DNA of 64,000 nucleotides, from assembly GCA_964019425.1 (NCBI GenBank), contig OZ025782.1:496001-560000 (forward strand), given 5' to 3'. This document shows, piece after piece, positions 357-43,283 of this stretch; the stretch's first letter is position 1, and the number at the start of each line of letters is the position of its first letter. The notes beneath the pieces were generated by a model that worked only from the letters and a program-made list of their open reading frames with translations, was not told the origin of the DNA and did no database searches. The translations under genes and the position numbers were made by a program. This stretch comes from Flectonema sp. DT1601. Its lineage: Eukaryota.

Positions 357-597
357 GAGTTGAATTTCCAGGTGAGATTTGGACTGTTAGCTTTTGGCTA
401 AGGCCCTCCCTGAAGAGCAAGAACAAAAAAACTACTCACACCTGAAGAAAACATACACAAAGAACACACTGTAAGCTGTGTGTGTATTTTGTGTTTGTCA
501 CAACAGGAGAGAAAAGAAAGAATGTCAAGGTTGGTCACCTTGCCTATCAACGCACAACATTGGTGGTCTCTACTAGACCCTGAGTGATCCCACTGGA
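357..597 (-). mobile_element. NA-1 non-coding retroposon, 3'-terminal 240 bp
   Basis: Identical to 18049-18289, with the same junction into gag. Confidence 0.85.
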
Positions 598-8053: not shown

Positions 8054-8462
8054 GTTTGTATCCCCTGGGTGTTTAGCGTCACCTGTTGAGGTGTAATGTA
8101 TTCTGTTTACTTCTATCCCTTTGTTTTTTTTTTTTTTTTTTTTTATTTCAAACAGGACAGCAGGGGGAAAGTTTGTTTCGTACCCCCCGGGTGCTTAGCG
8201 TCACCCTCCATGCGATGCTTGCGCAGGGAGAGCCAAGGGTCGAGAACCCTGGAGATTACCTTTGTTTCTTTTTGTGACTGGATTGCAGTGGCGCAACCCA
8301 TCACCCCACCTGTTGGTATCTTTTTATTTTTTTTATTTAAAGAAAAAAGCAGGCTAAGTCGCCTGAGCTGGCATCGCCAGAATATTCAACTTCACATGGC
8401 AATGTCAGCTCGTGAAGGGATCCAGTTGGATCAAAGGTTTTCTCCCCCCCCACTCTATTTAT

Positions 8463-9018
8463 CGTCATTGGTGCGCACCTTCGAACAGGAAGGCCAACAC
8501 TGACGGAATTTTTTACTTCTCTTTCATAGTTTACTCAGGGAATGATCACCAAGTCCACTTTTGTGCCTTTTTCTTACTGTTTTTTACTTTAAATTTTTCT
8601 GGTTAAAAATACCAAAAATTGTGCCGTGATCGGGAATTGAACCCCCGACCACGGTTACGTAAGCGATTTAAGGTCGACGACCATAACAACTCGGCTATGC
8701 AGGCTCTGGTACGTCGAAAATTATTTTATACTTATTACTTTTCTGTCCTAACGGAACGGAAAATGAAAAATGTCCTTCCTTATCTAAAATGCACTCTGCA
8801 CCTATTATGTTGGTTCAGCAGTGGCTTATCGAACTTATTAGCTCTCGTTGCACTGGTTAGCGCTGTGTTTGAGACGTTATATTATATCGGTACACTTTTA
8901 ACTAATATGTTACTTCCTTTCCTTAGCAAATTTTGCTCTTTTTGTTATTTCTCTAAAACAAAAGAATGTCTACACCACCAATTGTGGAAATTCCGCATGT
9001 AGAATCTGAGATGGATTT
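8463..9018 (+). repeat. 556-bp local tandem duplication (spacer end, SDR-a, gag start)
   Basis: Sequence restarts at cgtcattggtgcg at 9019; ORF track offset 8619 to 9175. Confidence 0.85.
8622..8704 (-). ncRNA. tRNA-like Pol III unit in SDR-a (also 9178-9260, 15165-15247, 17133-17215, 23940-24022, 26116-26198)
   Basis: Minus strand GCCTGCATAGCCGAGTTG...GGTTCAATTCCC...GGCA then TTTTT: A box, B box and terminator. Acceptor and anticodon stems are mispaired, so not a canonical tRNA. Confidence 0.65.
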
Positions 9019-9265
9019 CGTCATTGGTGCGCACCTTCGAACAGGAAGGCCAACACTGACGGAATTTTTTACTTCTCTTTCATAGTTTACTCAGGGAATG
9101 ATCACCAAGTCCACTTTTGTGCCTTTTTCTTACTGTTTTTTACTTTAAATTTTTCTGGTTAAAAATACCAAAAATTGTGCCGTGACCGGGAATTGAACCC
9201 CCGACCACGGTTACGTAAGCGATTTAAGGTCGACGACCATAACAACTCGGCTATGCAGGCTCTGG

Positions 9266-10467
9266 TTTTTTTTTTTTTTTTTTTTGGTTACACTCGTCTG
9301 TGCTTCCAGACTCTTTGTTTTTGTTCTTTTCACTTCTTTGTTTTGTCTTTCTTTTATACTTTCTTTTGGTTTAAGTCTGACAAATTGGAAAACACGGGAA
9401 ACATAGGTAGGCTCCGCCTGAGGACGTAAGAAGAGCGGCAACGGAAAAATAAGTGGTCACGCGTCCTTGAAATTGGACACATGAAGCTAATTCGGTTACC
9501 ATTCCTACCATCGATAAGGAAAAACAAAGAATCGAGCATATAACTAGAGCGGTGGTCAAAGACCACTTGAACAGCCCGAAGGCCTGCCCTCAAGAGAAAT
9601 TTATAAGGAGAATAGGAGAAGAAGGAGAAAGGAGTATTGGAAGGGACACTGAGACAACACCGAAGGTGATGTGCAGTTACCCAACCAGGAGATGATTGAT
9701 AATGATGAAAATACTAAATATTGATAAAACACTTAAATGGCGACTACGTGTCACCTACACAATTCCAAAGTCTCAGGTTGGATGCTTGTTCCATCCACCT
9801 GATCAACATCGCTACTGAAGGAAGCCAGCTGGTGGCAAAGATTGAGCCAAGACTGGCAGGAATGCCGTTGATGAGGATTAGATCACTTGATCGGTCCCAT
9901 TTGCCTGTCAATGTAGAAAAGCCAAGGATTTCATATCTGGCTGCATCGAGTTTCTGTGATGGACAGCCTACGAGTAGGTGGAGTTGGTTGGATGGAGCGC
10001 TATGGCAGAATGGACATATGATGGCTTTCCGCCAGTTTTGCATCAGTGGATGACACCCCGTTCTAAAATTCGCAATTCTGATTTCATCGCTCCTTTTCAT
10101 GTCGGGAGGATATTTTATCGCGGCACCTTTGACGGTGTTTTTATAGCAAGTGTAACCAATTCTGTTCCAAATGTCCTTCGTGATCCCCCTCCTCACTCGG
10201 GATTTGTGATAGAAGAAGGATCCTCGGATTGGGATTTGAGGGAGGTATCTGTTGTGAGCCGATTTCTTAGCAAGTTCATCAACTTCGTCGTGTGCTTCTA
10301 TCCCCATGTGAGAAGGGATGAATTGAAGATGTACTTTCATACCGCAGTTCCGTAGGTTCTCGAGGATGCCGAGGGATCTGGTGTTTCTCTGTTTACACCT
10401 GCCACCCTTCAACTCGTCCAACAATGATTTTGAGTCGGTATAGATTCTGACTGACTTAGTTAGCCCG
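9266..10467 (-). mobile_element. 5'-truncated second APE-type LINE (RNase H C-terminus, CCHC, 3' UTR, poly(A))
   Basis: YTDSKS, FIPSHMGIEAHDEVDELAK, CPFC..H..C in ORF 9744-10424; poly(T) at 9266-9286; TSD tctgg(t) at 9261 and 10468. Confidence 0.9.
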
Positions 10468-10728
10468 TCTGGTACGTCGAAAATTATTTTATACTTATTA
10501 CTTTTCTGTCCTAACGGAACGGAAAATGAAAAATGTCCTTCCTTATCTAAAATGCACTCTGCACCTATTATGTTGGTTCAGCAGTGGCTTATCGAACTTA
10601 TTAGCTCTCGTTGCACTGGTTAGCGCTGTGTTTGAGACGTTATATTATATCGGTACACTTTTAACTAATATGTTACTTCCTTTCCTTAGCAAATTTTGCT
10701 CTTTTTGTTATTTCTCTAAAACAAAAGA

Positions 10729-12009
10729 ATGTCTACACCACCAATTGTGGAAATTCCGCATGTAGAATCTGAGATGGATTTAGATTCAATTCTGTTTGAG
10801 GATTTGAGGACGGTGAGAGCACAATCACCACGTGCCACCATCGGGGAAGCAGGGACGTTTTGGGATCCCCAATCCAAAATGTCCGAAGAGATGATGAAAA
10901 ACAATTCGTTGGCCTTGATAGGAAGAGAAGCGGTGTATTGTATGAGGAAGGAAGGGGAATCAAGTTGGAATTGGTATTGTGGCTTATTGTCAATGGTGGG
11001 TAATACGGGGAGGGTAACCTTGTCAAATTCGACAAGTCTTTTAAGGGGTGTGTATCGACACACGGGGCCGGACGAAACATTCGACTTTCCACATGCGGGC
11101 TTTGAATATGCCCATGTGATAAGCAAGGATGTGTATTGGGATGAGTGGTCCAAAAGGTTAGTTCTAGAAAATGAACAAAAGATGTTAGGCATGTGCCAAA
11201 AGGTAACTAATTTGGAATCGCAGGTGGCGTCATTGTTATCGCCACAGATGCATGGTGCGCAACCCCAGCCACAGATGCATGGTGTGCAACCCCAGCCACA
11301 GATGCATGGTGCGCAACCCCAGCCACAGATGCATGGTGCGCAACCCCAGCCACAAATTCAACAAGAGAGTGGTATGATGCAACAAATGATGGCACTATTA
11401 TCGCAAAATCAACAATTATGTCAGATGCAGTTGCAGCATTCATCGGAATTATTAAAAAAGAAGTCAGCAGATGTGTGTCAATTGTCACCAGAGAACATCG
11501 AATGTCTGGATTTTGATCTAGCGACGGATGCGACTAACGTGTTACAATGGCGCGATATTTTGGCGCAGGGTGGATCAGAAAGGTTGCTGGATAAACTAGA
11601 AAACAAATACTGGTCAGTGCACAGGGGTAAATTGGCCACGAGGGAGTTAAGGGAGTTGAAGGCAGCCTTTGAAATTGTAAGAGATAATGTGAGGGTGGCA
11701 AGTACTAGATCAGCGGACTGGATTACTTCCAAACCATTGGTTCGGAGTATGAATAAATCATTGGAGTCGTTGATTATGAAATGGGAGTACACGACGAAAA
11801 GGATTAGCTCTGACGATATTGAACGAAGGGTCAAATCAGGGATGTTGTTTGAGAAGGCAGTGAGGATGGCAGAGGTTGATGCAGAGAAAAAGCACAAGAT
11901 AGAAATGAGCGGGAAAGGGTATAAGGGGAGTTGGAATCCACGGAATTTCGAGTACAGGGGAAAAGGGTTCTCGGGAAACGTTGGGGGGGCTGGCAAAGGT
12001 CACAAATGA
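10729..12009 (+). CDS. Gag-like ORF1 of the YR element (426 aa)
   Basis: First ORF after SDR-a; QMHGxQPQP repeats; G/K-rich C-terminus; repeated in each array unit. Confidence 0.8.
   Translation: MSTPPIVEIPHVESEMDLDSILFEDLRTVRAQSPRATIGEAGTFWDPQSKMSEEMMKNNSLALIGREAVYCMRKEGESSWNWYCGLLSMVGNTGRVTLSNSTSLLRGVYRHTGPDETFDFPHAGFEYAHVISKDVYWDEWSKRLVLENEQKMLGMCQKVTNLESQVASLLSPQMHGAQPQPQMHGVQPQPQMHGAQPQPQMHGAQPQPQIQQESGMMQQMMALLSQNQQLCQMQLQHSSELLKKKSADVCQLSPENIECLDFDLATDATNVLQWRDILAQGGSERLLDKLENKYWSVHRGKLATRELRELKAAFEIVRDNVRVASTRSADWITSKPLVRSMNKSLESLIMKWEYTTKRISSDDIERRVKSGMLFEKAVRMAEVDAEKKHKIEMSGKGYKGSWNPRNFEYRGKGFSGNVGGAGKGHK
11245..11352 (+). repeat. 27-bp coding minisatellite x4 (CAGATGCATGGTGYGCAACCCCAGCCA)
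   Basis: Direct tandem repeat. Confidence 0.95.
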
Positions 12010-14795
12010 ACCGAGGTCAGCCCCGAGTTAGTAAAGCGGTTTTTAAGCCGCGATCAGGGAGGCACTTGCCAAAGAAGGTCAGTGTCAGAAGAGTTAGCTC
12101 AAGTTCCAGATCGTATTTTGGAAATAAGGGAGAAGATTCTGCGATCAGAAGGGGCCGAGGTGTCGACGTTGATCGGCAGTCTTATGAAGAACCGAATCGA
12201 GGATCAGGTGAGGAGGGTCCAAAGAGGTCGGAACAAAGAGTTTTCAATGGACCTGAACGAGTCGCTGTTAGTTATGGAAGAGATCGCAGGAAAGATGTGG
12301 GCCCAAAGTACGATGCGAAACCGCCAGTGCTTGTGGGATCGTTTATTGATTTGGGTGGAGCGGAACGATGTTCCGGTAAACCAGGACACAGTGGCGCTGT
12401 TTGTGACAGCAACGAAAGTTTCAAAGCAGGGAATGCTGGCTTATTCAAAGGCATTCTCAGGCATGCTGAAGAGGATGGGATTGGAGAACGAAACGTTGAA
12501 GCAGTTGGCAGCGGCGTTGAGAGCGGACGGGGCTGCAGTCCCATTAGATCAAGCGGAGCCAATAGATCGGTTTACTTTAATCGCATGGGCGATGAGACAA
12601 GATGTCCAGTTGAGAGTGGGCTTGTTGATCGCTTGGAAGTCGGTAGCGAGATGGGGAGAAGTTTGGAAGTTGGGAAGGAGAAATTTCATTTTCGTTTCTG
12701 TGGAAGAGATCATTGTGGACTGGTGGGATGTTCCGAAGGGACGAAGGGAAGATCCCTTCAGGCCGTCCAGATGGGTAGTGATAAGAGGATACCTGACATC
12801 GGAGATAGCACAGGGCTTGCAAATGATGGGAAACTTTATAGCTCTAACAAGGGTATCAACAAGAAGTCTGGATGCTTTGTGGAGAAAGGACCTGTTAATG
12901 AAGAAGTTTTCAGCCCATTCAATAAAAAGGGGATCGATTTCTCATATTATGGGTCTGATGTCAACTGGAAGCAAAATCGACGAGGTCGTCATGGGAAGAC
13001 TGCTGAAGCATTCTTCGAAGAGCGATCCCTTTTCAGGGGTAACGATTCGGTATGGAGGAGACCCGGTGAGCATGGCCCGAGCATTGAGAACGGGAGAGAT
13101 AACGGTGTTGTTGTGAGAAGACATAATATTTGTAGACGACCGAAACGATCGGTATTACCAAGATCTTTAGAAGAAAAGAATTCCCCCCTGCATGTAACGA
13201 AAATTGAACCCATGTCCATTTTATTTGTAAAGGAAAGAATGTCGCAAAAACGGCTGAAAAGATTTAATTTTGTATGGGACTTAACATTTTATCCACACAA
13301 AGTATGCCACAATACCAGTTCCACAGGTCCGCTTGATCCTCATGCTTCAACCCTTGACTTCCATTCTGATTTTGATCATGTGATGAATTTTTCGGAGAAG
13401 GTGAGTTCGTTTTCTCGACTGCATGCTGATTTACTTGTGGAGAACGGGATCGCTCAGGAGACATCACAACCGAGTGAAGTTGAGAACATTCCGTTCACTG
13501 TGGTTGAGCAGAAGGCAACTGGTCTGCGCCAGAGGTTCATTCTTTGGACGAAGGAGTCAAATGAACGTTTGGTTGATGATGGTTATGTTGCTGATGTGCC
13601 CTTGGGGCATATCTCGGAATATCTGGACTCGGTGCTTCTTGATTGTGCAAGCGGAAGGGATTTCAGGACTGGTTTTTATCAGGTCGAGATTCCTCATGAT
13701 GCTCGCAAGTTCTTTAGTTTTAGATCAGACGATGGCCAGTTTTTTGAATTGACTCGGTTACCTATGGGTCATTCATGTGCACCAGAAATTATGCACACAT
13801 TAGCTGCTACCATCGCAGGTCATCCTGATTATGTGAAGCCGGACATCGCGATTCATGATGTAAGAGTAGATGTTTGGATCGATAACATTAGGTATTCTGG
13901 TCCAGCGAAGGAGGTGAAAGCTAGGACGACTGAACTTGATGGAACAGCTATGAGGGCTTCTGCAACTTGGAAGCAGGCTGATTCTTTCGATCTCTCTGTG
14001 GAGTATGAATTTTTAGGTGTCCAGTTTAGCCATCTAAGTAAGACTGTTGTTGTTTCTAAGAGATTACAGAGCAAGATTACTTCTGTGGATTTATTTTTGG
14101 TGTCAGCCTCTGGCTTGGAATCGTTGATGGGTAGATTGATGCATGCATCGGCTGTTTCTGGTGTATCTCCTGGGAGATTCTGGTTTGCCTTGAAGTTTAT
14201 TAGACGGATTATTAATAAGATTAATCGAGGTATTCTTGGTCTTGACGATGCGGTGCATGTCCCTCGTTCGGTACGATTGGAATTGTCTAGGTGGATGGTT
14301 GATGCTGTTAAATTGCGAACTATTAAAAAGATACTCCATGCTTCGAAACTGTTGACTGTATTTGTGGACGCTTCCTTAGAGGGATGGGGAGGTGTTGTAG
14401 TAGAACAGTCAGGTGCCCTTACTGTTGTAGGCGACATTTGGAGGCAAGAAAAAGGACTTCACATTAATATTCTCGAGGCAAAGGCTTTGCTTAATACTTT
14501 GTTAGCGTTGGACTTGTGGGATCTAAAAGGATTTAGGCTTGATATCAGGGTAGACAATACTTCTGTTATGGGGGCAGTTAGGAAAAGACAATGCCAGAAG
14601 AACAAAATCCTGAATGATGTAGTTTTGGCAGTTTCTGATTGGCTAATTTTTAAAAAGGTAGTTTTCAGTGTCAAGTATATTAAGTCTGCGTTGAATCCTG
14701 CAGACGGTCCTTCCAGAACTTCTATGGGCCTACTTTCATCTGATAAACTGCGATCTCAAGTCATACAAGCGGTGGGGCTGTTCTTCCGCACATAA
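12006..14795 (+). CDS. Reverse transcriptase-RNase H of the YR element (also 20781-23570)
   Basis: DFRTGFYQV, RLPMG..APE, WIDN, FLGV (RT); VDAS..GWG, INILE, VDNT, NPAD..SR (DIRS-type RNase H). First in-frame ATG is at 12006. Confidence 0.92.
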   Translation: MNRGQPRVSKAVFKPRSGRHLPKKVSVRRVSSSSRSYFGNKGEDSAIRRGRGVDVDRQSYEEPNRGSGEEGPKRSEQRVFNGPERVAVSYGRDRRKDVGPKYDAKPPVLVGSFIDLGGAERCSGKPGHSGAVCDSNESFKAGNAGLFKGILRHAEEDGIGERNVEAVGSGVESGRGCSPIRSSGANRSVYFNRMGDETRCPVESGLVDRLEVGSEMGRSLEVGKEKFHFRFCGRDHCGLVGCSEGTKGRSLQAVQMGSDKRIPDIGDSTGLANDGKLYSSNKGINKKSGCFVEKGPVNEEVFSPFNKKGIDFSYYGSDVNWKQNRRGRHGKTAEAFFEERSLFRGNDSVWRRPGEHGPSIENGRDNGVVVRRHNICRRPKRSVLPRSLEEKNSPLHVTKIEPMSILFVKERMSQKRLKRFNFVWDLTFYPHKVCHNTSSTGPLDPHASTLDFHSDFDHVMNFSEKVSSFSRLHADLLVENGIAQETSQPSEVENIPFTVVEQKATGLRQRFILWTKESNERLVDDGYVADVPLGHISEYLDSVLLDCASGRDFRTGFYQVEIPHDARKFFSFRSDDGQFFELTRLPMGHSCAPEIMHTLAATIAGHPDYVKPDIAIHDVRVDVWIDNIRYSGPAKEVKARTTELDGTAMRASATWKQADSFDLSVEYEFLGVQFSHLSKTVVVSKRLQSKITSVDLFLVSASGLESLMGRLMHASAVSGVSPGRFWFALKFIRRIINKINRGILGLDDAVHVPRSVRLELSRWMVDAVKLRTIKKILHASKLLTVFVDASLEGWGGVVVEQSGALTVVGDIWRQEKGLHINILEAKALLNTLLALDLWDLKGFRLDIRVDNTSVMGAVRKRQCQKNKILNDVVLAVSDWLIFKKVVFSVKYIKSALNPADGPSRTSMGLLSSDKLRSQVIQAVGLFFRT
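12082..13116 (+). CDS. Tyrosine recombinase (also 20857-21891); true start uncertain
   Basis: Catalytic R (ARWGE), HSIKRG, LLKH, TIRY. Confidence 0.9.
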   Translation: MSEELAQVPDRILEIREKILRSEGAEVSTLIGSLMKNRIEDQVRRVQRGRNKEFSMDLNESLLVMEEIAGKMWAQSTMRNRQCLWDRLLIWVERNDVPVNQDTVALFVTATKVSKQGMLAYSKAFSGMLKRMGLENETLKQLAAALRADGAAVPLDQAEPIDRFTLIAWAMRQDVQLRVGLLIAWKSVARWGEVWKLGRRNFIFVSVEEIIVDWWDVPKGRREDPFRPSRWVVIRGYLTSEIAQGLQMMGNFIALTRVSTRSLDALWRKDLLMKKFSAHSIKRGSISHIMGLMSTGSKIDEVVMGRLLKHSSKSDPFSGVTIRYGGDPVSMARALRTGEITVLL

Positions 14796-14842
14796 TTACA
14801 CTTAATCTTAATATTTCAATATCATTCTCTTTACTGGCGTTG

Positions 14843-15752
14843 GGGTGTTTCTTCTTGAGGTTCGCTATTGGTGTACCTGTTGTTTCTGGCTTGTTGCACC
14901 TCTTGCCTCGGTGTTTTTCAAAGTCTTGGGTAACCGACCTCTCGAAGATGCAACATTACCCCGACGTCAGTTGTTTGTGTTTAATCTCTTTAACATTATA
15001 ATTATAATTTAGTATCCATTTATTTATTCAGTCTTAATTACACAATATGGACGATGATGGTCATTCTCATAGTTTACTCAGGGAATGATCACCAAGTCCA
15101 CTTTTGTGCCTTTTTCTTACTGTTTTTTACTTTAAATTTTTCTGGTTAAAAATACCAAAAATTGTGCCGTGACCGGGAATTGAACCCCCGACCACGGTTA
15201 CGTAAGCGATTTAAGGTCGACGACCATAACAACTCGGCTATGCAGGCTCTGGTACGTCGAAAATTATTTTATACTTATTACTTTTCTGTCCTAACGGAAC
15301 GGAAAATGAAAAATGTCCTTCCTTATCTAAAATGCACTCTGCACCTATTATGTTGGTTCAGCAGTGGCTTATCGAACTTATTAGCTCTCGTTGCACTGGT
15401 TAGCGCTGTGTTTGAGACGTTATATTATATCGGTACACTTTTAACTAATATGTTACTTCCTTTCCTTAGCAAATTTTGCTCTTTTTGTTATTTCTCTAAA
15501 ACAAAAGAATTTCCCACCCTCCCACCCTGGGTGTTTCTTCTTGAGGTTCGCTATTGGTGTACCTGTTGTTTCTGGCTTGTTGCACCTCTTGCCTCGGTGT
15601 TTTTCAAAGTCTTGGGTAACCGACCTCTCGAAGATGCAACATTACCCCGACGTCAGTTGTTTGTGTTTAATCTCTTTAACATTATAATTATAATTTAGTA
15701 TCCATTTATTTATTCAGTCTTAATTACACAATATGGACGATGATGGTCATTC
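14843..15752 (+). repeat. Split direct repeats: b1 14843-15066, a2 15067-15510, b2 15529-15752 (a1 = 17035-17478 type)
   Basis: 224-bp b repeated; 444-bp a identical to the sequence immediately before the gag ATG. Confidence 0.92.
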
Positions 15753-16146
15753 CCCAGGGTTGAACCTTGGGAAAAAAACAAACAATAAACACAGTGTAGA
15801 CAAACACCCGCCGGACATCTGCAGAGCAGCGATCGATGTCGATGTCTTCGTTGTCGAACTTCCTGGCGTTTATGTTTTTGTTTTTAACAACAACACAACA
15901 CCAACTAACAGGTTTGTCTCATTGCCCGTTCTTTCTTGTTTCCCTTTGCCGCCGGAAGAACGAAGGTCGACGGAGGTCCGAAGCATTGCTTGCGATGATG
16001 TTCCGGTATGTGTTGCGTCTCTGTTATTTGTTTGTTTCAACTCAATTGGTTCATCTCAGGTTTTAGAAGTCTTCGTCCTGTTCGTTGGGAAGGGCCTGAA
16101 TCAAAAGTTCACTGCCCCTATTCCTCTCCCAAATTTCTTATTCAGC
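15753..16146 (+). mobile_element. NA-3, putative retroposon 3' end inside the spacer (also 24736-25129); 5' limit uncertain
   Basis: 16051-16146 aligns by eye with the NA-1 3' end, including the GGGC/CAAAA stem-loop and an attcagc terminus. Confidence 0.55.
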
Positions 16147-17034
16147 TTGCCACATGACTGTGTGACATTATTGCTACATTGTAGCTCCCCTACAAAAACC
16201 TTATTTTTTGCAGTTGTCTTTTGGTTGTAGCAACTTTTATTTTATGCTTTTCTAATGTCCCAAAGTTGGTTTATTTTACTTTTTTTTTTCTGCAAGGGAA
16301 CAGTCCAAAGCATAAGTCCGAACAGCCCTAAGGCCAGTGAACGCACTGATTGTTAGGTATTGTATTCCAGGGAAAGTTTGGTTTGTATACTTTATTTTTA
16401 TTTTATTTTATTTAATTTGTTAAAAGAAAACAGGTAACTTTACATGAGCATCGGCTCGAACGGCTCTGGCGAAGCGAGTGAACGAGTCTGATTGCTGAGT
16501 ATTGTATTCTGTTTTCTTGTTCTTTTTTTAATTTATTTCAAACAGGGCAACAGGGGGAAAGTTTGGTTTGTATCCCCTGGGTGTTTAGCGTCACCTGTTG
16601 AGGTGTAATGTATTCTGTTTACTTCTATCCCTTTGTTTTTTTTTTTTTTTTTTTTTATTTCAAACAGGACAGCAGGGGGAAAGTTTGTTTCGTACCCCCC
16701 GGGTGCTTAGCGTCACCCTCCATGCGATGCTTTCGCAGGGAGAGCCAAGGGTCGAGAACCCTGGAGATTACCTTTGTTTCTTTTTGTGACTGGATTGCAG
16801 TGGCGCAACCCATCACCCCACCTGTTGGTATCTTTTTATTTTTTTTATTTAAAGAAAAAAGCAGGCTAAGTCGCCTGAGCTGGCATCGCCAGAATATTTA
16901 ACTTCACATGGCAATGTCAGCTCGTGAAGGGATCCAGTTGGATCAAAGGTTTTCTCCCCCCCACTCTATTTATCGTCATTGGTGCGCACCTTCGAACAGG
17001 AAGGCCAACACTGACGGAATTTTTTACTTCTCTT
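15753..17034. repeat. Constant 1.28-kb non-coding spacer of the YR array (also 24736-26017; partial 8051-8522)
   Basis: Identical between units; contains internal imperfect duplications and hairpins. Confidence 0.85.
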
Positions 17035-18048
17035 TCATAGTTTACTCAGGGAATGATCACCAAGTCCACTTTTGTGCCTTTTTCTTACTGTTTTTTACTT
17101 TAAATTTTTCTGGTTAAAAATACCAAAAATTGTGCCGTGACCGGGAATTGAACCCCCGACCACGGTTACGTAAGCGATTTAAGGTCGACGACCATAACAA
17201 CTCGGCTATGCAGGCTCTGGTACGTCGAAAATTATTTTATACTTATTACTTTTCTGTCCTAACGGAACGGAAAATGAAAAATGTCCTTCCTTATCTAAAA
17301 TGCACTCTGCACCTATTATGTTGGTTCAGCAGTGGCTTATCGAACTTATTAGCTCTCGTTGCACTGGTTAGCGCTGTGTTTGAGACGTTATATTATATCG
17401 GTACACTTTTAACTAATATGTTACTTCCTTTCCTTAGCAAATTTTGCTCTTTTTGTTATTTCTCTAAAACAAAAGAATGTCTACACCACCAATTGTGGAA
17501 ATTCCGCATGTAGAATCTGAGATGGATTTAGATTCAATTCTGTTTGAGGATTTGAGGACGGTGAGAGCACAATCACCACGTGCCACCATCGGGGAAGCAG
17601 GGACGTTTTGGGATCCCCAATCCAAAATGTCCGAAGAGATGATGAAAAACAATTCGTTGGCCTTGATAGGAAGAGAAGCGGTGTATTGTATGAGGAAGGA
17701 AGGGGAATCAAGTTGGAATTGGTATTGTGGCTTATTGTCAATGGTGGGTAATACGGGGAGGGTAACCTTGTCAAATTCGACAAGTCTTTTAAGGGGTGTG
17801 TATCGACACACGGGGCCGGACGAAACATTCGACTTTCCACATGCGGGCTTTGAATATGCCCATGTGATAAGCAAGGATGTGTATTGGGATGAGTGGTCCA
17901 AAAGGTTAGTTCTAGAAAATGAACAAAAGATGTTAGGCATGTGCCAAAAGGTAACTAATTTGGAATCGCAGGTGGCGTCATTGTTATCGCCACAGATGCA
18001 TGGTGCGCAACCCCAGCCACAGATGCATGGTGTGCAACCCCAGCCACA

Positions 18049-20074
18049 GAGTTGAATTTCCAGGTGAGATTTGGACTGTTAGCTTTTGGCTAAGGCCCTC
18101 CCTGAAGAGCAAGAACAAAAAAACTACTCACACCTGAAGAAAACATACACAAAGAACACACTGTAAGCTGTGTGTGTATTTTGTGTTTGTCACAACAGGA
18201 GAGAAAAGAAAGAATGTCAAGGTTGGTCACCTTGCCTATCAACGCACAACATTGGTGGTCTCTACTAGACCCTGAGTGATCCCACTGGATCTCTCATCGT
18301 TCATAGTACCCTGTGTGAAGTTATAAAATCAAAGGTAAACTATGAACTACAAATGACTTAGCCTGTTATTATAATGCCACAGGCAGGCCCTGCATTCAGC
18401 AACTATCCAGCAGTGCTTGGATGTCCTGATTTTCTTCTAAAAAAAAGAAAGAAAAACAAAACTGTAGCTGGGATCACTCAGGATCAACAGACTACCAATG
18501 CTACCTGTTGTACTTGCTCACTATGGGGGGTGATGCCAAACACCCAGAAGTACTAAACTGCTTTCCTTCTTGCTGCCCAGGAGTTTCTGACCAGAACTAA
18601 TAGAAAATAAAAAGTAGATGGGAAACAATAAAAAGTAAAATGGATATAACTGAAGTTAAACAAGACAAATGAAGTAACAGACCAGAACAGAAAGAGGATT
18701 GTAATAGAAGATTACAAATAAAAAAATGCAAGTATCAACACATAATCAAGATACACCAGCAGCTAACAAACAACATAAAATTGAAGATCAGTTGCCAGAG
18801 TATTTCAACCATGGTAGAATACTCGCCCCTCTGGCAGGGATTATCCCAGACTTGTCCTTTAATTTAGTTGGACACCATGGCTTACAACCCTTCCAGAGGG
18901 AAGCACCATTATGACTTCTATTTTTTTTCTTCAAGAAAATCATAAGGTGGGAACAAAGAAAAATGCTAAGAGGAACCCCCTATTAACACCTAAGACATCT
19001 AAACTGCAGCCCAGCTTATGCCCAATGCACTAACAGGTCATTCCCTCACACTCAGATCAAAAAATCAAAGTTCAGAGTGCATCTTAGCGTGAATGAGAGA
19101 ATTTCCTCCCGCTTATTTTGAACAAAAGGGATAGGAGAAGGGATAGAAAACGAACATAAAAATAAAATTCTAAGTGAGAAACACTTAGCAGAAACACTTA
19201 GCAGCTTTTAAGGAGCTGAAAAGCAAAAAAAAAATCTAAGTGAGAAACACTTAGTAGAAACAATTTGTAGCTAATTAAGCTGAAAATAAAAAAATAAAAA
19301 ATTTCTAAGTGAGAAAAACTTAGCAACTTTTAGAACAAATATTTCAGTAAATAACCTGTAATGATTAAACCATTACAAGTTTGATGCCAAAACTGACAAG
19401 GACTGAGTTGAATTTCCAGGTGAGATTTGGACTGTTAGCTTTTGGCTAAGGCCCTCCCTGAAGAGCAAGAACAAAAAAACTACTCACACCTGAAGAAAAC
19501 ATACACAAAGAACACACTGTAAGCTGTGTGTGTATTTTGTGTTTGTCACAACAGGAGAGAAAAGAAAGAATGTCAAGGTTGGTCACCTTGCCTATCAACG
19601 CACAACATTGGTGGTCTCTACTAGACCCTGAGTGATCCCACTGGATCTCTCATCGTTCATAGTACCCTGTGTGAAGTTATAAAATCAAAGGTAAACTATG
19701 AACTACAAATGACTTAGCCTGTTATTATAATGCCACAGGCAGGCCCTGCATTCAGCAACTATCCAGCAGTGCTTGGATGTCCTGATTTTCTTCTAAAAAA
19801 AAGAAAGAAAAACAAAACTGTAGCTGGGATCACTCAGGATCAACAGACTACCAATGCTACCTGTTGTACTTGCTCACTATGGGGGGTGATGCCAAACACC
19901 CAGAAGTACTAAACTGCTTTCCTTCTTGCTGCCCAGGAGTTTCTGACCAGAACTAATAGAAAATAAAAAGTAGATGGGAAACAATAAAAAGTAAAATGGA
20001 TATAACTGAAGTTAAACAAGACAAATGAAGTAACAGACCAGAACAGAAAGAGGATTGTAATAGAAGATTACAAA
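18049..20074 (-). mobile_element. Tandem NA-1: full copy 18049-19401 plus truncated copy 19405-20074
   Basis: gagttgaatttcc restarts at 19405; gag resumes at 20078 with no clear TSD. Confidence 0.88.
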
Positions 20075-23000
20075 GATTGCATGGTGCGCAACCCCAGCCA
20101 CAGATGCATGGTGCGCAACCCCAGCCACAAATTCAACAAGAGAGTGGTATGATGCAACAAATGATGGCACTATTATCGCAAAATCAACAATTATGTCAGA
20201 TGCAGTTGCAGCATTCATCGGAATTATTAAAAAAGAAGTCAGCAGATGTGTGTCAATTGTCACCAGAGAACATCGAATGTCTGGATTTTGATCTAGCGAC
20301 GGATGCGACTAACGTGTTACAATGGCGCGATATTTTGGCGCAGGGTGGATCAGAAAGGTTGCTGGATAAACTAGAAAACAAATACTGGTCAGTGCACAGG
20401 GGTAAATTGGCCACGAGGGAGTTAAGGGAGTTGAAGGCAGCCTTTGAAATTGTAAGAGATAATGTGAGGGTGGCAAGTACTAGATCAGCGGACTGGATTA
20501 CTTCCAAACCATTGGTTCGGAGTATGAATAAATCATTGGAGTCGTTGATTATGAAATGGGAGTACACGACGAAAAGGATTAGCTCTGACGATATTGAACG
20601 AAGGGTCAAATCAGGGATGTTGTTTGAGAAGGCAGTGAGGATGGCAGAGGTTGATGCAGAGAAAAAGCACAAGATAGAAATGAGCGGGAAAGGGTATAAG
20701 GGGAGTTGGAATCCACGGAATTTCGAGTACAGGGGAAAAGGGTTCTCGGGAAACGTTGGGGGGGCTGGCAAAGGTCACAAATGAACCGAGGTCAGCCCCG
20801 AGTTAGTAAAGCGGTTTTTAAGCCGCGATCAGGGAGGCACTTGCCAAAGAAGGTCAGTGTCAGAAGAGTTAGCTCAAGTTCCAGATCGTATTTTGGAAAT
20901 AAGGGAGAAGATTCTGCGATCAGAAGGGGCCGAGGTGTCGACGTTGATCGGCAGTCTTATGAAGAACCGAATCGAGGATCAGGTGAGGAGGGTCCAAAGA
21001 GGTCGGAACAAAGAGTTTTCAATGGACCTGAACGAGTCGCTGTTAGTTATGGAAGAGATCGCAGGAAAGATGTGGGCCCAAAGTACGATGCGAAACCGCC
21101 AGTGCTTGTGGGATCGTTTATTGATTTGGGTGGAGCGGAACGATGTTCCGGTAAACCAGGACACAGTGGCGCTGTTTGTGACAGCAACGAAAGTTTCAAA
21201 GCAGGGAATGCTGGCTTATTCAAAGGCATTCTCAGGCATGCTGAAGAGGATGGGATTGGAGAACGAAACGTTGAAGCAGTTGGCAGCGGCGTTGAGAGCG
21301 GACGGGGCTGCAGTCCCATTAGATCAAGCGGAGCCAATAGATCGGTTTACTTTAATCGCATGGGCGATGAGACAAGATGTCCAGTTGAGAGTGGGCTTGT
21401 TGATCGCTTGGAAGTCGGTAGCGAGATGGGGAGAAGTTTGGAAGTTGGGAAGGAGAAATTTCATTTTCGTTTCTGTGGAAGAGATCATTGTGGACTGGTG
21501 GGATGTTCCGAAGGGACGAAGGGAAGATCCCTTCAGGCCGTCCAGATGGGTAGTGATAAGAGGATACCTGACATCGGAGATAGCACAGGGCTTGCAAATG
21601 ATGGGAAACTTTATAGCTCTAACAAGGGTATCAACAAGAAGTCTGGATGCTTTGTGGAGAAAGGACCTGTTAATGAAGAAGTTTTCAGCCCATTCAATAA
21701 AAAGGGGATCGATTTCTCATATTATGGGTCTGATGTCAACTGGAAGCAAAATCGACGAGGTCGTCATGGGAAGACTGCTGAAGCATTCTTCGAAGAGCGA
21801 TCCCTTTTCAGGGGTAACGATTCGGTATGGAGGAGACCCGGTGAGCATGGCCCGAGCATTGAGAACGGGAGAGATAACGGTGTTGTTGTGAGAAGACATA
21901 ATATTTGTAGACGACCGAAACGATCGGTATTACCAAGATCTTTAGAAGAAAAGAATTCCCCCCTGCATGTAACGAAAATTGAACCCATGTCCATTTTATT
22001 TGTAAAGGAAAGAATGTCGCAAAAACGGCTGAAAAGATTTAATTTTGTATGGGACTTAACATTTTATCCACACAAAGTATGCCACAATACCAGTTCCACA
22101 GGTCCGCTTGATCCTCATGCTTCAACCCTTGACTTCCATTCTGATTTTGATCATGTGATGAATTTTTCGGAGAAGGTGAGTTCGTTTTCTCGACTGCATG
22201 CTGATTTACTTGTGGAGAACGGGATCGCTCAGGAGACATCACAACCGAGTGAAGTTGAGAACATTCCGTTCACTGTGGTTGAGCAGAAGGCAACTGGTCT
22301 GCGCCAGAGGTTCATTCTTTGGACGAAGGAGTCAAATGAACGTTTGGTTGATGATGGTTATGTTGCTGATGTGCCCTTGGGGCATATCTCGGAATATCTG
22401 GACTCGGTGCTTCTTGATTGTGCAAGCGGAAGGGATTTCAGGACTGGTTTTTATCAGGTCGAGATTCCTCATGATGCTCGCAAGTTCTTTAGTTTTAGAT
22501 CAGACGATGGCCAGTTTTTTGAATTGACTCGGTTACCTATGGGTCATTCATGTGCACCAGAAATTATGCACACATTAGCTGCTACCATCGCAGGTCATCC
22601 TGATTATGTGAAGCCGGACATCGCGATTCATGATGTAAGAGTAGATGTTTGGATCGATAACATTAGGTATTCTGGTCCAGCGAAGGAGGTGAAAGCTAGG
22701 ACGACTGAACTTGATGGAACAGCTATGAGGGCTTCTGCAACTTGGAAGCAGGCTGATTCTTTCGATCTCTCTGTGGAGTATGAATTTTTAGGTGTCCAGT
22801 TTAGCCATCTAAGTAAGACTGTTGTTGTTTCTAAGAGATTACAGAGCAAGATTACTTCTGTGGATTTATTTTTGGTGTCAGCCTCTGGCTTGGAATCGTT
22901 GATGGGTAGATTGATGCATGCATCGGCTGTTTCTGGTGTATCTCCTGGGAGATTCTGGTTTGCCTTGAAGTTTATTAGACGGATTATTAATAAGATTAAT

Positions 23001-24140
23001 CGAGGTATTCTTGGTCTTGACGATGCGGTGCATGTCCCTCGTTCGGTACGATTGGAATTGTCTAGGTGGATGGTTGATGCTGTTAAATTGCGAACTATTA
23101 AAAAGATACTCCATGCTTCGAAACTGTTGACTGTATTTGTGGACGCTTCCTTAGAGGGATGGGGAGGTGTTGTAGTAGAACAGTCAGGTGCCCTTACTGT
23201 TGTAGGCGACATTTGGAGGCAAGAAAAAGGACTTCACATTAATATTCTCGAGGCAAAGGCTTTGCTTAATACTTTGTTAGCGTTGGACTTGTGGGATCTA
23301 AAAGGATTTAGGCTTGATATCAGGGTAGACAATACTTCTGTTATGGGGGCAGTTAGGAAAAGACAATGCCAGAAGAACAAAATCCTGAATGATGTAGTTT
23401 TGGCAGTTTCTGATTGGCTAATTTTTAAAAAGGTAGTTTTCAGTGTCAAGTATATTAAGTCTGCGTTGAATCCTGCAGACGGTCCTTCCAGAACTTCTAT
23501 GGGCCTACTTTCATCTGATAAACTGCGATCTCAAGTCATACAAGCGGTGGGGCTGTTCTTCCGCACATAATTACACTTAATCTTAATATTTCAATATCAT
23601 TCTCTTTACTGGCGTTGGGGTGTTTCTTCTTGAGGTTCGCTATTGGTGTACCTGTTGTTTCTGGCTTGTTGCACCTCTTGCCTCGGTGTTTTTCAAAGTC
23701 TTGGGTAACCGACCTCTCGAAGATGCAACATTACCCCGACGTCAGTTGTTTGTGTTTAATCTCTTTAACATTATAATTATAATTTAGTATCCATTTATTT
23801 ATTCAGTCTTAATTACACAATATGGACGATGATGGTCATTCTCATAGTTTACTCAGGGAATGATCACCAAGTCCACTTTTGTGCCTTTTTCTTACTGTTT
23901 TTTACTTTAAATTTTTCTGGTTAAAAATACCAAAAATTGTGCCGTGACCGGGAATTGAACCCCCGACCACGGTTACGTAAGCGATTTAAGGTCGACGACC
24001 ATAACAACTCGGCTATGCAGGCTCTGGTACGTCGAAAATTATTTTATACTTATTACTTTTCTGTCCTAACGGAACGGAAAATGAAAAATGTCCTTCCTTA
24101 TCTAAAATGCACTCTGCACCTATTATGTTGGTTCAGCAGT

Positions 24141-24348
24141 GAGTTGAATTTCCAGGTGAGATTTGGACTGTTAGCTTTTGGCTAAGGCCCTCCCTGAAGA
24201 GCAAGAACAAAAAAACTACTCACACCTGAAGAAAACATACACAAAGAACACACTGTAAGCTGTGTGTGTATTTTGTGTTTGTCACAACAGGAGAGAAAAG
24301 AAAGAATGTCAAGGTTGGTCACCTTGCCTATCAACGCACAACATTGGT
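24141..24348 (-). mobile_element. 5'-truncated NA-1 (208 bp) in SDR-a2
   Basis: Splits cagcagt|ggcttatc; fixed gagttg end; gtgg microhomology at the other end. Confidence 0.9.
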
Positions 24349-26017
24349 GGCTTATCGAACTTATTAGCTCTCGTTGCACTGGTTAGCGCTGTGTTTGAGA
24401 CGTTATATTATATCGGTACACTTTTAACTAATATGTTACTTCCTTTCCTTAGCAAATTTTGCTCTTTTTGTTATTTCTCTAAAACAAAAGAATTTCCCAC
24501 CCTCCCACCCTGGGTGTTTCTTCTTGAGGTTCGCTATTGGTGTACCTGTTGTTTCTGGCTTGTTGCACCTCTTGCCTCGGTGTTTTTCAAAGTCTTGGGT
24601 AACCGACCTCTCGAAGATGCAACATTACCCCGACGTCAGTTGTTTGTGTTTAATCTCTTTAACATTATAATTATAATTTAGTATCCATTTATTTATTCAG
24701 TCTTAATTACACAATATGGACGATGATGGTCATTCCCCAGGGTTGAACCTTGGGAAAAAAACAAACAATAAACACAGTGTAGACAAACACCCGCCGGACA
24801 TCTGCAGAGCAGCGATCGATGTCGATGTCTTCGTTGTCGAACTTCCTGGCGTTTATGTTTTTGTTTTTAACAACAACACAACACCAACTAACAGGTTTGT
24901 CTCATTGCCCGTTCTTTCTTGTTTCCCTTTGCCGCCGGAAGAACGAAGGTCGACGGAGGTCCGAAGCATTGCTTGCGATGATGTTCCGGTATGTGTTGCG
25001 TCTCTGTTATTTGTTTGTTTCAACTCAATTGGTTCATCTCAGGTTTTAGAAGTCTTCGTCCTGTTCGTTGGGAAGGGCCTGAATCAAAAGTTCACTGCCC
25101 CTATTCCTCTCCCAAATTTCTTATTCAGCTTGCCACATGACTGTGTGACATTATTGCTACATTGTAGCTCCCCTACAAAAACCTTATTTTTTGCAGTTGT
25201 CTTTTGGTTGTAGCAACTTTTATTTTATGCTTTTCTAATGTCCCAAAGTTGGTTTATTTTACTTTTTTTTTTCTGCAAGGGAACAGTCCAAAGCATAAGT
25301 CCGAACAGCCCTAAGGCCAGTGAACGCACTGATTGTTAGGTATTGTATTCCAGGGAAAGTTTGGTTTGTATACTTTATTTTTATTTTATTTTATTTAATT
25401 TGTTAAAAGAAAACAGGTAACTTTACATGAGCATCGGCTCGAACGGCTCTGGCGAAGCGAGTGAACGAGTCTGATTGCTGAGTATTGTATTCTGTTTTCT
25501 TGTTCTTTTTTTAATTTATTTCAAACAGGGCAACAGGGGGAAAGTTTGGTTTGTATCCCCTGGGTGTTTAGCGTCACCTGTTGAGGTGTAATGTATTCTG
25601 TTTACTTCTATCCCTTTGTTTTTTTTTTTTTTTTTTTTTATTTCAAACAGGACAGCAGGGGGAAAGTTTGTTTCGTACCCCCCGGGTGCTTAGCGTCACC
25701 CTCCATGCGATGCTTTCGCAGGGAGAGCCAAGGGTCGAGAACCCTGGAGATTACCTTTGTTTCTTTTTGTGACTGGATTGCAGTGGCGCAACCCATCACC
25801 CCACCTGTTGGTATCTTTTTATTTTTTTTATTTAAAGAAAAAAGCAGGCTAAGTCGCCTGAGCTGGCATCGCCAGAATATTTAACTTCACATGGCAATGT
25901 CAGCTCGTGAAGGGATCCAGTTGGATCAAAGGTTTTCTCCCCCCCACTCTATTTATCGTCATTGGTGCGCACCTTCGAACAGGAAGGCCAACACTGACGG
26001 AATTTTTTACTTCTCTT

Positions 26018-27581
26018 TCATAGTTTACTCAGGGAATGATCACCAAGTCCACTTTTGTGCCTTTTTCTTACTGTTTTTTACTTTAAATTTTTCTGGTTAA
26101 AAATACCAAAAATTGTGCCGTGACCGGGAATTGAACCCCCGACCACGGTTACGTAAGCGATTTAAGGTCGACGACCATAACAACTCGGCTATGCAGGCTC
26201 TGGTACGTCGAAAATTATTTTATACTTATTACTTTTCTGTCCTAACGGAACGGAAAATGAAAAATGTCCTTCCTTATCTAAAATGCACTCTGCACCTATT
26301 ATGTTGGTTCAGCAGTGGCTTATCGAACTTATTAGCTCTCGTTGCACTGGTTAGCGCTGTGTTTGAGACGTTATATTATATCGGTACACTTTTAACTAAT
26401 ATGTTACTTCCTTTCCTTAGCAAATTTTGCTCTTTTTGTTATTTCTCTAAAACAAAAGAATGTCTACACCACCAATTGTGGAAATTCCGCATGTAGAATC
26501 TGAGATGGATTTAGATTCAATTCTGTTTGAGGATTTGAGGACGGTGAGAGCACAATCACCACGTGCCACCATCGGGGAAGCAGGGACGTTTTGGGATCCC
26601 CAATCCAAAATGTCCGAAGAGATGATGAAAAACAATTCGTTGGCCTTGATAGGAAGAGAAGCGGTGTATTGTATGAGGAAGGAAGGGGAATCAAGTTGGA
26701 ATTGGTATTGTGGCTTATTGTCAATGGTGGGTAATACGGGGAGGGTAACCTTGTCAAATTCGACAAGTCTTTTAAGGGGTGTGTATCGACACACGGGGCC
26801 GGACGAAACATTCGACTTTCCACATGCGGGCTTTGAATATGCCCATGTGATAAGCAAGGATGTGTATTGGGATGAGTGGTCCAAAAGGTTAGTTCTAGAA
26901 AATGAACAAAAGATGTTAGGCATGTGCCAAAAGGTAACTAATTTGGAATCGCAGGTGGCGTCATTGTTATCGCCACAGATGCATGGTGCGCAACCCCAGC
27001 CACAGATGCATGGTGTGCAACCCCAGCCACAGATGCATGGTGCGCAACCCCAGCCACAGATGCATGGTGCGCAACCCCAGCCACAAATTCAACAAGAGAG
27101 TGGTATGATGCAACAAATGATGGCACTATTATCGCAAAATCAACAATTATGTCAGATGCAGTTGCAGCATTCATCGGAATTATTAAAAAAGAAGTCAGCA
27201 GATGTGTGTCAATTGTCACCAGAGAACATCGAATGTCTGGATTTTGATCTAGCGACGGATGCGACTAACGTGTTACAATGGCGCGATATTTTGGCGCAGG
27301 TTGGATCAGAAAGGTTGCTGGATAAACTAGAAAACAAATACTGGTCAGTGCACAGGGGTAAATTGGCCACGAGGGAGTTAAGGGAGTTGAAGGCAGCCTT
27401 TGAAATTGTAAGAGATAATGTGAGGGTGGCAAGTACTAGATCAGCGGACTGGATTACTTCCAAACCATTGGTTCGGAGTATGAATAAATCATTGGAGTCG
27501 TTGATTATGAAATGGGAGTACACGACGAAAAGGATTAGCTCTGACGATATTGAACGAAGGGTCAAATCAGGGATGTTGTTT
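26018..27581 (+). pseudogene. Third YR copy, truncated within gag at the NA-2 junction
   Basis: gag matches up to GMLF, then NA-2 terminus at 27586. Confidence 0.9.
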
Positions 27582-27585
27582 AGCA

Positions 27586-27974
27586 GGGAAGTAACGGACT
27601 GGGAGCTTTTGGCTCCTGCCCTATTCCCGATGTAAACTTTCTTTTTATTTTTTTTTTTTTTTTAACAGGCCCAGAGGGCGACAATGACTGTTGCTGACCA
27701 AGGAATAATATTCAAATGAATTTTCGTTTCAAAGAAACGAACAGAATTAAGAGAGAGGCAGAGAAAAAAAAAAAAAAAAGAAAGAAAAGAAAAAAAAAAT
27801 ATGAAGAGGAAATAATCAAACATGAAAAAAATAAAAAAAAAAAATAAAATATAAATAAAAAACGTTGTATGAAAAAGGAAAAAAAAAAAAAAAAAAAAAA
27901 AAAAAGACCAGAAAAGGAAAGAGAAAATGAAAAGGTATAATATTATTGTGGGGATATGAGGATAGCAGGGAGAT

Positions 27975-28005
<31 letters not shown>

Positions 28006-38890: not shown

Positions 38891-39085
38891 GCTGAATTCG
38901 ATAGAGTGGGAAGTAACGGACTGGGAGCTTTTGGCTCCTGCCCTATTCCCGATGTAAACTTTCTTTTTATTTTTTTTTTTTTTTTAACAGGCCCAGAGGG
39001 CGACAATGACTGTTGCTGACCAAGGAATAATATTCAAATGAATTTTCGTTTCAAAGAAACGAACAGAATTAAGAGAGAGGCAGAG

Positions 39086-39116
<31 letters not shown>

Positions 39117-39297
39117 AAAAAATATGAAGAGGAAATAATCAAACATGAAAAAAATAAAAAAAAAAAATAAAATATAAATAAAAAACGTTGTATGAAAAAG
39201 GAAAAAAAAAAAAAAAAAAAAAAAAAAAGACCAGAAAAGGAAAGAGAAAATGAAAAGGTATAATATTATTGTGGGGATATGAGGATAGCAGGGAGAT

Positions 39298-39328
<31 letters not shown>

Positions 39329-42818: not shown

Positions 42819-42849
<31 letters not shown>

Positions 42850-43245: not shown

Positions 43246-43283
<38 letters not shown>

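Follow-up and report, generated by a model that had tools for sequence, protein, structure and literature searches.

NA-1, a young non-coding retroposon in the genome of a probable diplonemid, and its likely HERO-like partner

Which enzyme moves a repeat that codes for no protein itself? The question is raised by NA-1, several pieces of which lie in a stretch of 64,000 nucleotides from Flectonema sp. DT1601 (assembly GCA_964019425.1, contig OZ025782.1, positions 496,001 to 560,000 of the forward strand), hereafter called the window, whose first letter is position 1. The window is a nest of retroelements beside a few intronless genes, and among the retroelements is a HERO-like long interspersed nuclear element (LINE) of the type with a restriction-like endonuclease (RLE). 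We found that NA-1 is a real, young and recently active non-coding retroposon, and it likely depends, as a non-autonomous partner, on the HERO-like LINE next to it or on a sister subfamily thereof. Such a partnership had been proposed in an original prediction made from the letters of the window alone. It stands as the best reading, the polarity of the copies and the lack of an upstream reverse transcriptase (RT) open reading frame (ORF) are confirmed and both elements have a common terminus, but the end by which the two elements had been linked was misplaced.

Copies and ends of NA-1

With blastn NA-1 was found in the window as eight pieces of at least 210 bp with 98–100% identity. They belong to the following copies:

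18049–19401, minus strand: full-length copy (1353 bp), sense on the minus strand with the 5' end at 19401 and the 3' end at 18049; situated within the 27-bp repeats of a DIRS-like element
19405–20074, minus strand: 5'-truncated copy (670 bp) just ahead of the full copy on its 5' side
357–597, minus strand: duplicate of the insertion junction at 18049 (241 bp), interrupted at 597, where an ingi-like element starts
24141–24350, minus strand: 5'-truncated copy (210 bp) in a DIRS-like element, a clean insertion in comparison with the empty site at 15366
46467–47652, plus strand: 5'-truncated copy (1186 bp, matched from 47652 to 46467) in the tandem tract of a HERO-like 3' fragment, in the same orientation
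51955–53454, minus strand: older variant (98%) with a full 5' end at 53454 and without a 3' end, matched as two pieces, 52751–53454 (704 bp) and 51955–52329 (376 bp)
52342–52562, minus strand: 5'-truncated copy (221 bp) nested in the older variant

An earlier count of seven pieces is obtained only when 51955–53454 is taken as one interrupted copy. Six of the eight pieces begin at one base of GAGTTGAATTTCC, and at the far end the copies at 19401 and 53454 both stop at the same CTGACAAGG, so that both common ends proposed before are real. The same is true for the absence of poly(A) and for the expectation of little or no target site duplication: comparison of the NA-1 sites with the empty sites in the duplicate DIRS-like copies revealed a duplication or microhomology of 0–3 bp. 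Also the predicted polarity holds, four copies being truncated at their 5' ends, and no RT ORF is present upstream; the 5' end meets either the 3' end of NA-1 itself or an unrelated flank.

Two claims had to be corrected. The six fixed ends do not represent six separate insertions: the pieces starting at 357 and 18049 are one junction that was duplicated, because positions 1–597 and 17693–18289 are 100% identical and both pieces have one and the same flank. The distinct 3' junctions of NA-1 in the window number five, four of them into foreign DNA and one into the 5' end of NA-1. Furthermore, the unit is 1356 bp and not 1353 bp long, since the three bases 19402–19404 recur at the same joint in contigs of two sequencing runs, X1 and X2.

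NA-1 has no coding capacity. In six frames of the doubled unit the longest stop-to-stop frame comprises 68 amino acids and the longest ORF starting with methionine 62 amino acids. ARAGORN called no tRNA gene in NA-1, no Rfam family, tRNA, 5S and 7SL types included, matched it above the gathering score, and a crude pattern for the A and B boxes of RNA polymerase III found neither box in the unit. Judged as a short interspersed nuclear element (SINE) in the strict sense, NA-1 thus lacks a head derived from tRNA, 5S or 7SL RNA.

Two further observations concern single pieces. The 241-bp piece stops at the start, that is at the spliced leader, of the ingi-like element. We considered this piece (unit positions 1–241) and the piece from 51955 (unit position 242 onwards) as one split copy; the flank at 51955, however, is no ingi 3' end, and the flanks do not point to such a copy. 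The older variant contains about 140 extra bases (52330–52341 and 52563–52690), which are two pieces of the HERO 3' untranslated region (UTR), inverted relative to NA-1 and swapped in order.

The HERO-like element and the common stem–loop

NA-1 resembles the HERO-like element in two parts:

18589–18686, minus strand: internal segment of NA-1 (98 bp), 79–81% identical to the HERO-like 3' UTR (32191–32285 and 41494–41588), in the same orientation
18049–18105, minus strand: predicted 3'-terminal stem–loop of NA-1 with a short tail (core 18073–18098), shared with the HERO-like unit

The HERO-like sequences of the window are the following:

33323–38620, minus strand: HERO-like ORF, 1765 amino acids from stop to stop; the first methionine is residue 280, past the zinc fingers
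27586–33322, minus strand: 3' tail of the full HERO-like copy (5.7 kb), consisting of UTR, about 3.9 kb of tandem repeats (27977–31894) and 390 unique bases with the stem–loop core at 27596–27621; adjoins DIRS-like DNA
38891–39534, minus strand: truncated HERO 3' fragment that lies immediately ahead of the full copy, head to tail (stem–loop core 38918–38943)
39535–44961, plus strand: HERO-like copy truncated at its 5' side within the ORF, with the same stem–loop at its end (core 44911–44936)
44962–48855, plus strand: HERO 3' fragment from the tandem tract (stem–loop core 48805–48830), containing the 1186-bp NA-1 copy
49773–51433, plus strand: HERO 3' fragment from the tandem tract (stem–loop core 51381–51406)

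The internal homology had been noticed before and is real. The segment aligns with 32191–32285 at 78.8% identity (E 5e-17, blastn) and also with the UTR of the second HERO-like copy, 41494–41588, at 80.8% identity (E 9e-20). The local alignment scores of 94 and 108 compare with shuffle maxima of 45 and 39, respectively (30 shuffles each).

According to the original prediction both elements end in aactc(ct). These letters are present in the HERO-like tail (31896–31902), but they are not its end, as both ORF-bearing copies run 3–4 kb further to a common terminus. In both of them 110–250-bp tandem repeats are followed by 390 unique bases and then by this terminus, so that the 3' tail measures 5.7 kb in the full copy, against 4.9 kb in the second one. 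Three more 5'-truncated HERO tails reach the same terminus, the five ends being located at 27586, 38908, 44946, 48840, and 51416. The real common terminus of NA-1 and the HERO-like element had been missed because the HERO 3' end was put in the wrong place.

The terminus is predicted to form a stem–loop that consists of GGGC, a 5-bp stem, the loop CAAAA, identical in NA-1 and HERO, and then CAGTCC. With up to three mismatches allowed, this pattern was found 11 times in the window, namely at all six fixed ends of NA-1 and at all five HERO tails, and nowhere else; here only the placement is informative, because the pattern was built from these ends. In the alignment of the stem–loops 11 of 11 pairs are kept in all five rows and three pairs are changed on both sides, whereas slid controls were paired to 27–53%. 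The ends of both elements fold to the same predicted shape on the sense strand, and a G.U pair in the middle stem reads correctly only there (fold z scores of –1.65 and –3.34 for sense versus –0.27 and –2.23 for antisense). When the terminal 75 bases of NA-1 were aligned with the HERO end, only 2 of 2000 shuffles reached the alignment score. Outside the window the pattern was met at six loci in metagenome contigs (three of them identical), none HERO- or NA-1-like, which we take as chance, and at none in viral contigs. The ingi-like, DIRS-like and other regions of the window that were tested gave no match to NA-1 at E ≤ 0.01.

The ORF of the HERO-like element contains two N-terminal zinc-finger motifs (residues 77 and 125), an RT domain (FADD at 643), a CCHC knuckle (979), an RHD motif (1008), and PD..D/E (1092). 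The knuckle spacing CX2-3CX7-8HX4C was adopted from PMC5678591. Pfam matches are RVT_1 and zf-RVT, and R2 proteins are the three best of 10 matches to solved structures. By these motifs the element is classed as an RLE-type non-LTR (long terminal repeat) retrotransposon. The ORF has 64 homologues with up to 34% identity, none of which (0/64) is labelled HERO, and the core matched only unnamed RT clusters of the ESM Atlas. The motif R(Y/F)xWRHD, seen in the three homologues of the ORF that were inspected, we take to be HERO-like. The clade label is used at the level of motifs together with the lack of a fixed site, which fits the description of the HERO clade as mostly not site-specific elements with a single ORF for zinc fingers, RT, CCHC knuckle, and RLE (PMC4640811). 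The element of the window differs from the clade as described by its 4.9–5.7-kb tail with tandem repeats, a 550-amino-acid C-terminal extension, and the lack of an early AUG. The extension past the nuclease domain (about 550 amino acids; 33323–34975, minus strand) is partly coiled-coil-like, and no family was found for it in Pfam or the ESM Atlas (best 0.89). In viral contigs three loci aligned with the HERO-like element at 22–24% identity, none with the stem–loop pattern. At 39534/39535 two HERO-derived copies abut 5' to 5' in opposite orientations, so that each outer end is a terminal stem–loop.

The head-to-tail junction

18049–20074 is a tandem of 1.5 units, in which the 670-bp copy lies directly 5' of the full copy. 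Two features are of relevance for the joint:

19402–19404, minus strand: three-base head-to-tail junction, AGT in sense, which completes the 1356-bp unit
34506–34737, plus strand: piece of the HERO ORF that in a chimera of run X2 lies between the NA-1 3' end and NA-1 from 18675; the chimera itself does not occur in the window

Of 20 sequencing runs listed, 16 contain part of the window. NA-1 was compared with the contigs of the sequencing runs X1, X2, and X6 and the HERO-like element with those of X1, X2, X3, and X5, X1 and X2 coming from two studies. The RNA run X20, a quarter of which was read, contained no NA-1 read, a sample that carries no weight either way. X6, of which 39% was read, covers NA-1 only at 18060–18743 and hence not the joint. 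The same three bases connect 19401 to 18049 in the window, in X1, and in X2, that is in two of the three runs compared. As a random template jump would not repeat the same three bases in three data sets, the junction must be inherited or templated. In X1 NA-1 forms one unbranched loop of 1366 bases without a loose end; in X2 there are two loops, and neither run contains a loose NA-1 5' end. NA-1 consequently also exists as a tandem or a circle, the contigs fitting either form. X1 or X2 could be the source of the window itself, yet both differ from the copy at 18049 where other copies of the window differ from it.

At unit position 383 both halves of the window tandem have a T, whereas the other two copies covering this position as well as X1, X2, and X6 have a C. 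Copying of a single template 1.5 times would lead to this, as would a local duplication of the insertion. In X2 the 627 bases at the 3' end of NA-1 have a depth of 6.0 and the 5' part has a depth of 2.6–2.8; the second loop accounts for 2.0 of the difference, and the depth of a contig does not give a copy number. The step is in line with the predicted polarity of NA-1.

The second loop of X2 is a chimera consisting of the NA-1 3' end, 232 bases of the HERO ORF (34506–34737, opposite strand), and NA-1 from 18675. It provides a sixth 3' junction of NA-1 at the same base. X1, the run with the NA-1 loop, also covers the HERO ORF at 33075–38509, with a depth of 9.1–9.3 in the 3' part and of 4.8 in the 5' part, at which a variant branches away. 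X5 covers the HERO ORF in pieces, X2 has no more than 232 bases of it, and X3 yielded two short unrelated matches only. None of these four runs spans the 5' junction of the HERO-like copy at 38890, from which, as from other gaps in coverage, nothing follows. The HERO-like element has the same partial-tandem layout once in the window, with 38891–39534 ahead of the full copy. A contig of X5 (1382 bases, depth 6.35) consists of the HERO terminus (38897–38951) and then 1327 other letters; it could be another head-to-tail unit.

We searched the junctions for known ribozymes. No hammerhead was found by Rfam in the whole window (E ≤ 1) or in 18900–19800 (E ≤ 10), nor by a crude core scan run without a positive control. 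For HDV (hepatitis delta virus)-like ribozymes Rfam gave no match at the junction, and a descriptor of our own, likewise without a positive control, found none. At the head-to-tail junctions of both NA-1 and HERO Rfam reported only sub-threshold unrelated families. The NA-1 junction A-GUC-C resembles the substrate of the hairpin ribozyme; however, neither a loop-A partner for this site nor a loop-B motif was detected. Eight other loop-A-like pairings (six distinct; 0–3 in shuffles) are located elsewhere in the unit on the NA-1 sense strand and are not interpreted here.

Mechanism, alternatives, and genomic setting

From the ends and homologies described we infer the following course of events. 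NA-1 would be transcribed, and the HERO-like RLE protein would bind the predicted stem–loop on the NA-1 RNA. The RLE nuclease would nick DNA with little specificity, and target-primed cDNA synthesis would start at a fixed distance from the stem–loop. Early stops of the RT would give rise to the 5'-truncated copies, and a blunt or near-blunt second cut would leave no target duplication. The 1.5-unit insertion at 18049–20074 could arise when the RT reads past the NA-1 5' end on an RNA that is a multimer or a circle, or when it jumps between templates; template jumping of the R2 RT has been demonstrated in vivo (PMC3414825). The template is perhaps, and we say this tentatively at somewhat less than even chances, the transcript of a tandem array or a circular RNA; its opening would lie after the final C at the fixed end and before the three bases of the junction. 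With a single opening at this place, every dispersed copy would receive the 3' end observed, and the 5' end would lie three bases further out than in the copy at 53454. A more far-reaching version appears rather unlikely to us: NA-1 would be a 1356-nt circular or multimeric RNA replicon of the RLE LINE that is cut once by an undescribed self-cleaving or protein-guided event and is copied by rolling-circle target-primed reverse transcription, the HERO-like element would follow the same strategy, and free circles including NA-1/HERO chimeras would occur.

The motif TTATCGA adjoins two HERO 3' ends exactly and two more loosely, and it is found in the opposite orientation at two of the seven variable ends of NA-1. 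The motif or a near-variant is situated at 24352, 53455, 48844, 51419, 38907–38891, and 44947–44961; in 53,715 non-tandem bases TTATCGA occurs 21 times, duplicates included. We see in it a possible nuclease target, a possible templated tail, or a combination of the two.

Several observations weigh against NA-1 as a partner of the HERO-like element. The match of the termini is not seen by blastn, and local alignment of the whole element to the HERO terminal regions scores at the level of shuffles (36 versus a maximum of 36, and 35 versus a maximum of 34). The covariation in the stem–loop comprises two distinct sequences only, and because four of the five rows are one family, its shuffle control yields no probability. 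The NA-1 5' end has no match in the HERO 5' UTR (38600–38890; score 24, shuffle maximum 35), for which there is one candidate HERO 5' end. The X2 chimera is one 291-base contig with a depth of 2.0 and may be one molecule. The two NA-1 5' junctions at TTATCGA, oriented opposite to the HERO 3' ends, are not explained by the model. Between the two HERO copies the identity is 99.4% (501/504) in the end of the ORF and the first part of the UTR, but it drops to 89% (398/448 aligned) in the segment that follows; HERO tails therefore appear to have been swapped between subfamilies, and the 3' tail may have a separate history as a module. The current driver of NA-1 may thus be a sister subfamily of the HERO-like element. 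Finally, the unbranched loop of X1 and the junction contig of X2, which is as deep (2.8) as the 5' half (2.6), fit an array or a circle as well as dispersed retrocopies.

The last two points would also be expected if NA-1 were the unit of a host tandem array, a satellite or an RNA gene array, from which the HERO-like element took a related unit as its 3' tail while the dispersed pieces are passive retrocopies: the loop of the 1356-bp unit in X1 is closed and without branches, the depth of the X2 junction equals that of the body, the HERO ORF end differs in divergence from the module that follows it, and multicopy repeats are the targets of most RLE clades (PMC4640811). We nevertheless regard this explanation as improbable. 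The tail of the full HERO copy adjoins DIRS-like DNA and not an array, and the unit has no Rfam family above the gathering score, no tRNA and no polymerase III boxes. Moreover, NA-1 RNA must be an efficient RT substrate, given that no fewer than four dispersed insertions of recent date have the same exact end, and this makes NA-1 operationally a non-autonomous element. A closed loop in two runs could as well point to a small mitochondrial chromosome or an extrachromosomal circle with the window copies being nuclear copies of mitochondrial DNA (NUMTs). Diplonemid mitochondrial DNA consists of many small, very abundant circles, and over 1400 NUMTs are present in Diplonema papillatum, 11 of them whole chromosomes (PMC7049700, PMC10161547); the two X2 loops with 627 bases in common even resemble a constant region with two cassettes. 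Yet NUMTs from a circle should break randomly, whereas six NA-1 pieces have one common base. The second X2 'cassette' is nuclear HERO ORF, both NA-1 homologies are to a nuclear LINE tail, and the reported diplonemid mitochondrial chromosomes of 2–12 kb (PMC7049700, PMC10161547) contrast with a loop of 1.36 kb, so that we consider a mitochondrial origin very unlikely.

The enzyme could be a different one, either that of a Penelope-like element or that of the ingi-like or DIRS-like elements of the window. Partial tandem and loop recall non-LTR retrozymes and Penelope pseudo-LTRs (10.64898/2026.07.22.740005), and the ingi-like ORFs close by look intact. However, neither Rfam nor the crude scan detected a hammerhead, poly(A) ends the ingi-like copies but never NA-1, and NA-1 has no sequence in common with ingi-like or DIRS-like DNA, all detected homology being to the HERO-like tail. 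This places another enzyme among the highly improbable explanations, just ahead of a mitochondrial origin. With a HERO-like tail of 4.9–5.7 kb, long non-coding 3' fragments are to be expected, and NA-1 might merely be the 3' UTR of a longer unseen RLE element. This is the least probable explanation and largely refuted: the window, X1, and X2 all show the NA-1 5' end linked to the element's own 3' end, neither run has a loose 5' end, and another copy reaches exactly this base (53454) next to an unrelated flank.

Retrozyme units comprise a few hundred bases. EhSINEs and EhLINEs have common 3' ends, and the EhLINEs are of the RLE type. Several known systems are comparable to NA-1 as a partner of the HERO-like LINE. 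MoTeR2 with MoTeR1 of Magnaporthe oryzae is likewise a kb-scale non-coding partner of an RLE element, with a short common 3' end (77 bp in MoTeR2), an unrelated middle part, head-to-tail arrays, and 5' truncation (10.1101/845669). MoTeR2 also shares 860 bp of the 5' end, targets telomere repeats, and has TTAGGG spacers (10.1101/845669), whereas NA-1 has no detectable common 5' end, varied target DNA, and a fixed three-base junction. The short internally deleted elements (SIDEs) of R2 in Drosophila are also non-autonomous and use a 3' end recognised by an RLE-type RT, but they possess a 5' HDV-like ribozyme and a fixed 28S site and are cotranscribed with the rDNA (PMC3414825); for NA-1 neither a ribozyme nor a fixed site was detected. 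A common 5' end, as in internal deletion derivatives of the SIDE, RIME, or MoTeR2 type, is not found in NA-1. EhSINE1-3 of Entamoeba are protist non-autonomous LINE partners, some of them chimeric; they are about 0.6 kb long with target duplications (21 bp in the described case; PMC2657916), whereas NA-1 is larger, has 0–3 bp, and occurs in tandem or loop form. The non-LTR retrozymes of animals are non-coding tandem units for which circular RNA and rolling-circle copying have been proposed, but they carry a type I hammerhead per unit and are Penelope-derived (10.64898/2026.07.22.740005), in contrast to the 1356-bp NA-1 without a detected hammerhead and tied to an RLE LINE. By analogy, NA-1 would work like MoTeR2, the R2 SIDEs, and the EhSINEs and would be arranged like a non-LTR retrozyme.

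The known partners of RLE-type LINEs are few. The literature searched gave no account of a partner element in the HERO clade or in diplonemids, nor of NA-1 itself; the search did not extend to Repbase, Dfam, subscription journals, and the supplements of bioRxiv papers, where one may be recorded. The accessible supplements on D. papillatum do not mention HERO, NeSL, non-autonomous, retroposon, or SINE, and diplonemid transposons are described as still uncatalogued (PMC10161547). The pair of NA-1 and HERO-like element amounts to a natural compensatory experiment that points to an RNA signal of about 50 bases for template choice by an RLE protein that is not site-specific. This signal is directly testable and is relevant to RNA-guided cargo insertion with R2-type proteins. 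If the invariant junction indeed reflects a circular or self-processing RNA, retrozyme-type biology would be present in a second class of retrotransposons, possibly with a hidden new ribozyme.

The other elements of the window include:

597/598–6588: full-length ingi-like element with a 577-amino-acid ORF1 and a 1329-amino-acid protein with apurinic endonuclease (APE), RT, and RNase H; spliced leader at the 5' end and poly(A) tail

The spliced-leader entry 'Euglenozoa 14' is presumably a diplonemid leader. The 38 bases at the ingi-like 5' end match this entry at 36 of 38 positions (PMC3795323), and the full-length element is a retrocopy of a trans-spliced RNA. By this leader and the best protein matches given below, the host, a marine protist, is most likely a diplonemid. 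A truncated piece with poly(A) tail and RNase H is located at 9266–10467 (minus strand). The region 8052–27581 contains tandem, 100% identical DIRS-like copies (ORFs of 429 and 956 amino acids) that differ in insertions only; this is either a very recent amplification or an assembly effect. The 956-amino-acid ORF has RT-RNase H-like motifs in which WIDN replaces YxDD, without a Pfam RT match and without a recombinase being seen, and the label DIRS-like is assigned from motifs.

Fragments of 28S rRNA lie amid the repeats at 54437–54674 and 54772–54874 (minus strand); scattered 28S pieces have been reported for D. papillatum (PMC7049700, PMC10161547). Further non-coding repeats at 48860–49772 and 54820–58650 comprise G/C-rich long hairpins (three copies), tRNA-like stretches not called by ARAGORN, and a duplicated 1.15-kb unit with internal 560-bp repeats. 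The intronless host genes at 59774–63558 code for a 2-amino-3-ketobutyrate CoA ligase, a VTT-domain protein, and a DnaJ protein. For the gene at 59798–61024 the best named matches carry the EukProt prefixes Rhum, Sspe, and Hpha, which we take to be the diplonemids Rhynchopus humris, Sulcionema specki, and Hemistasia phaeocysticola.

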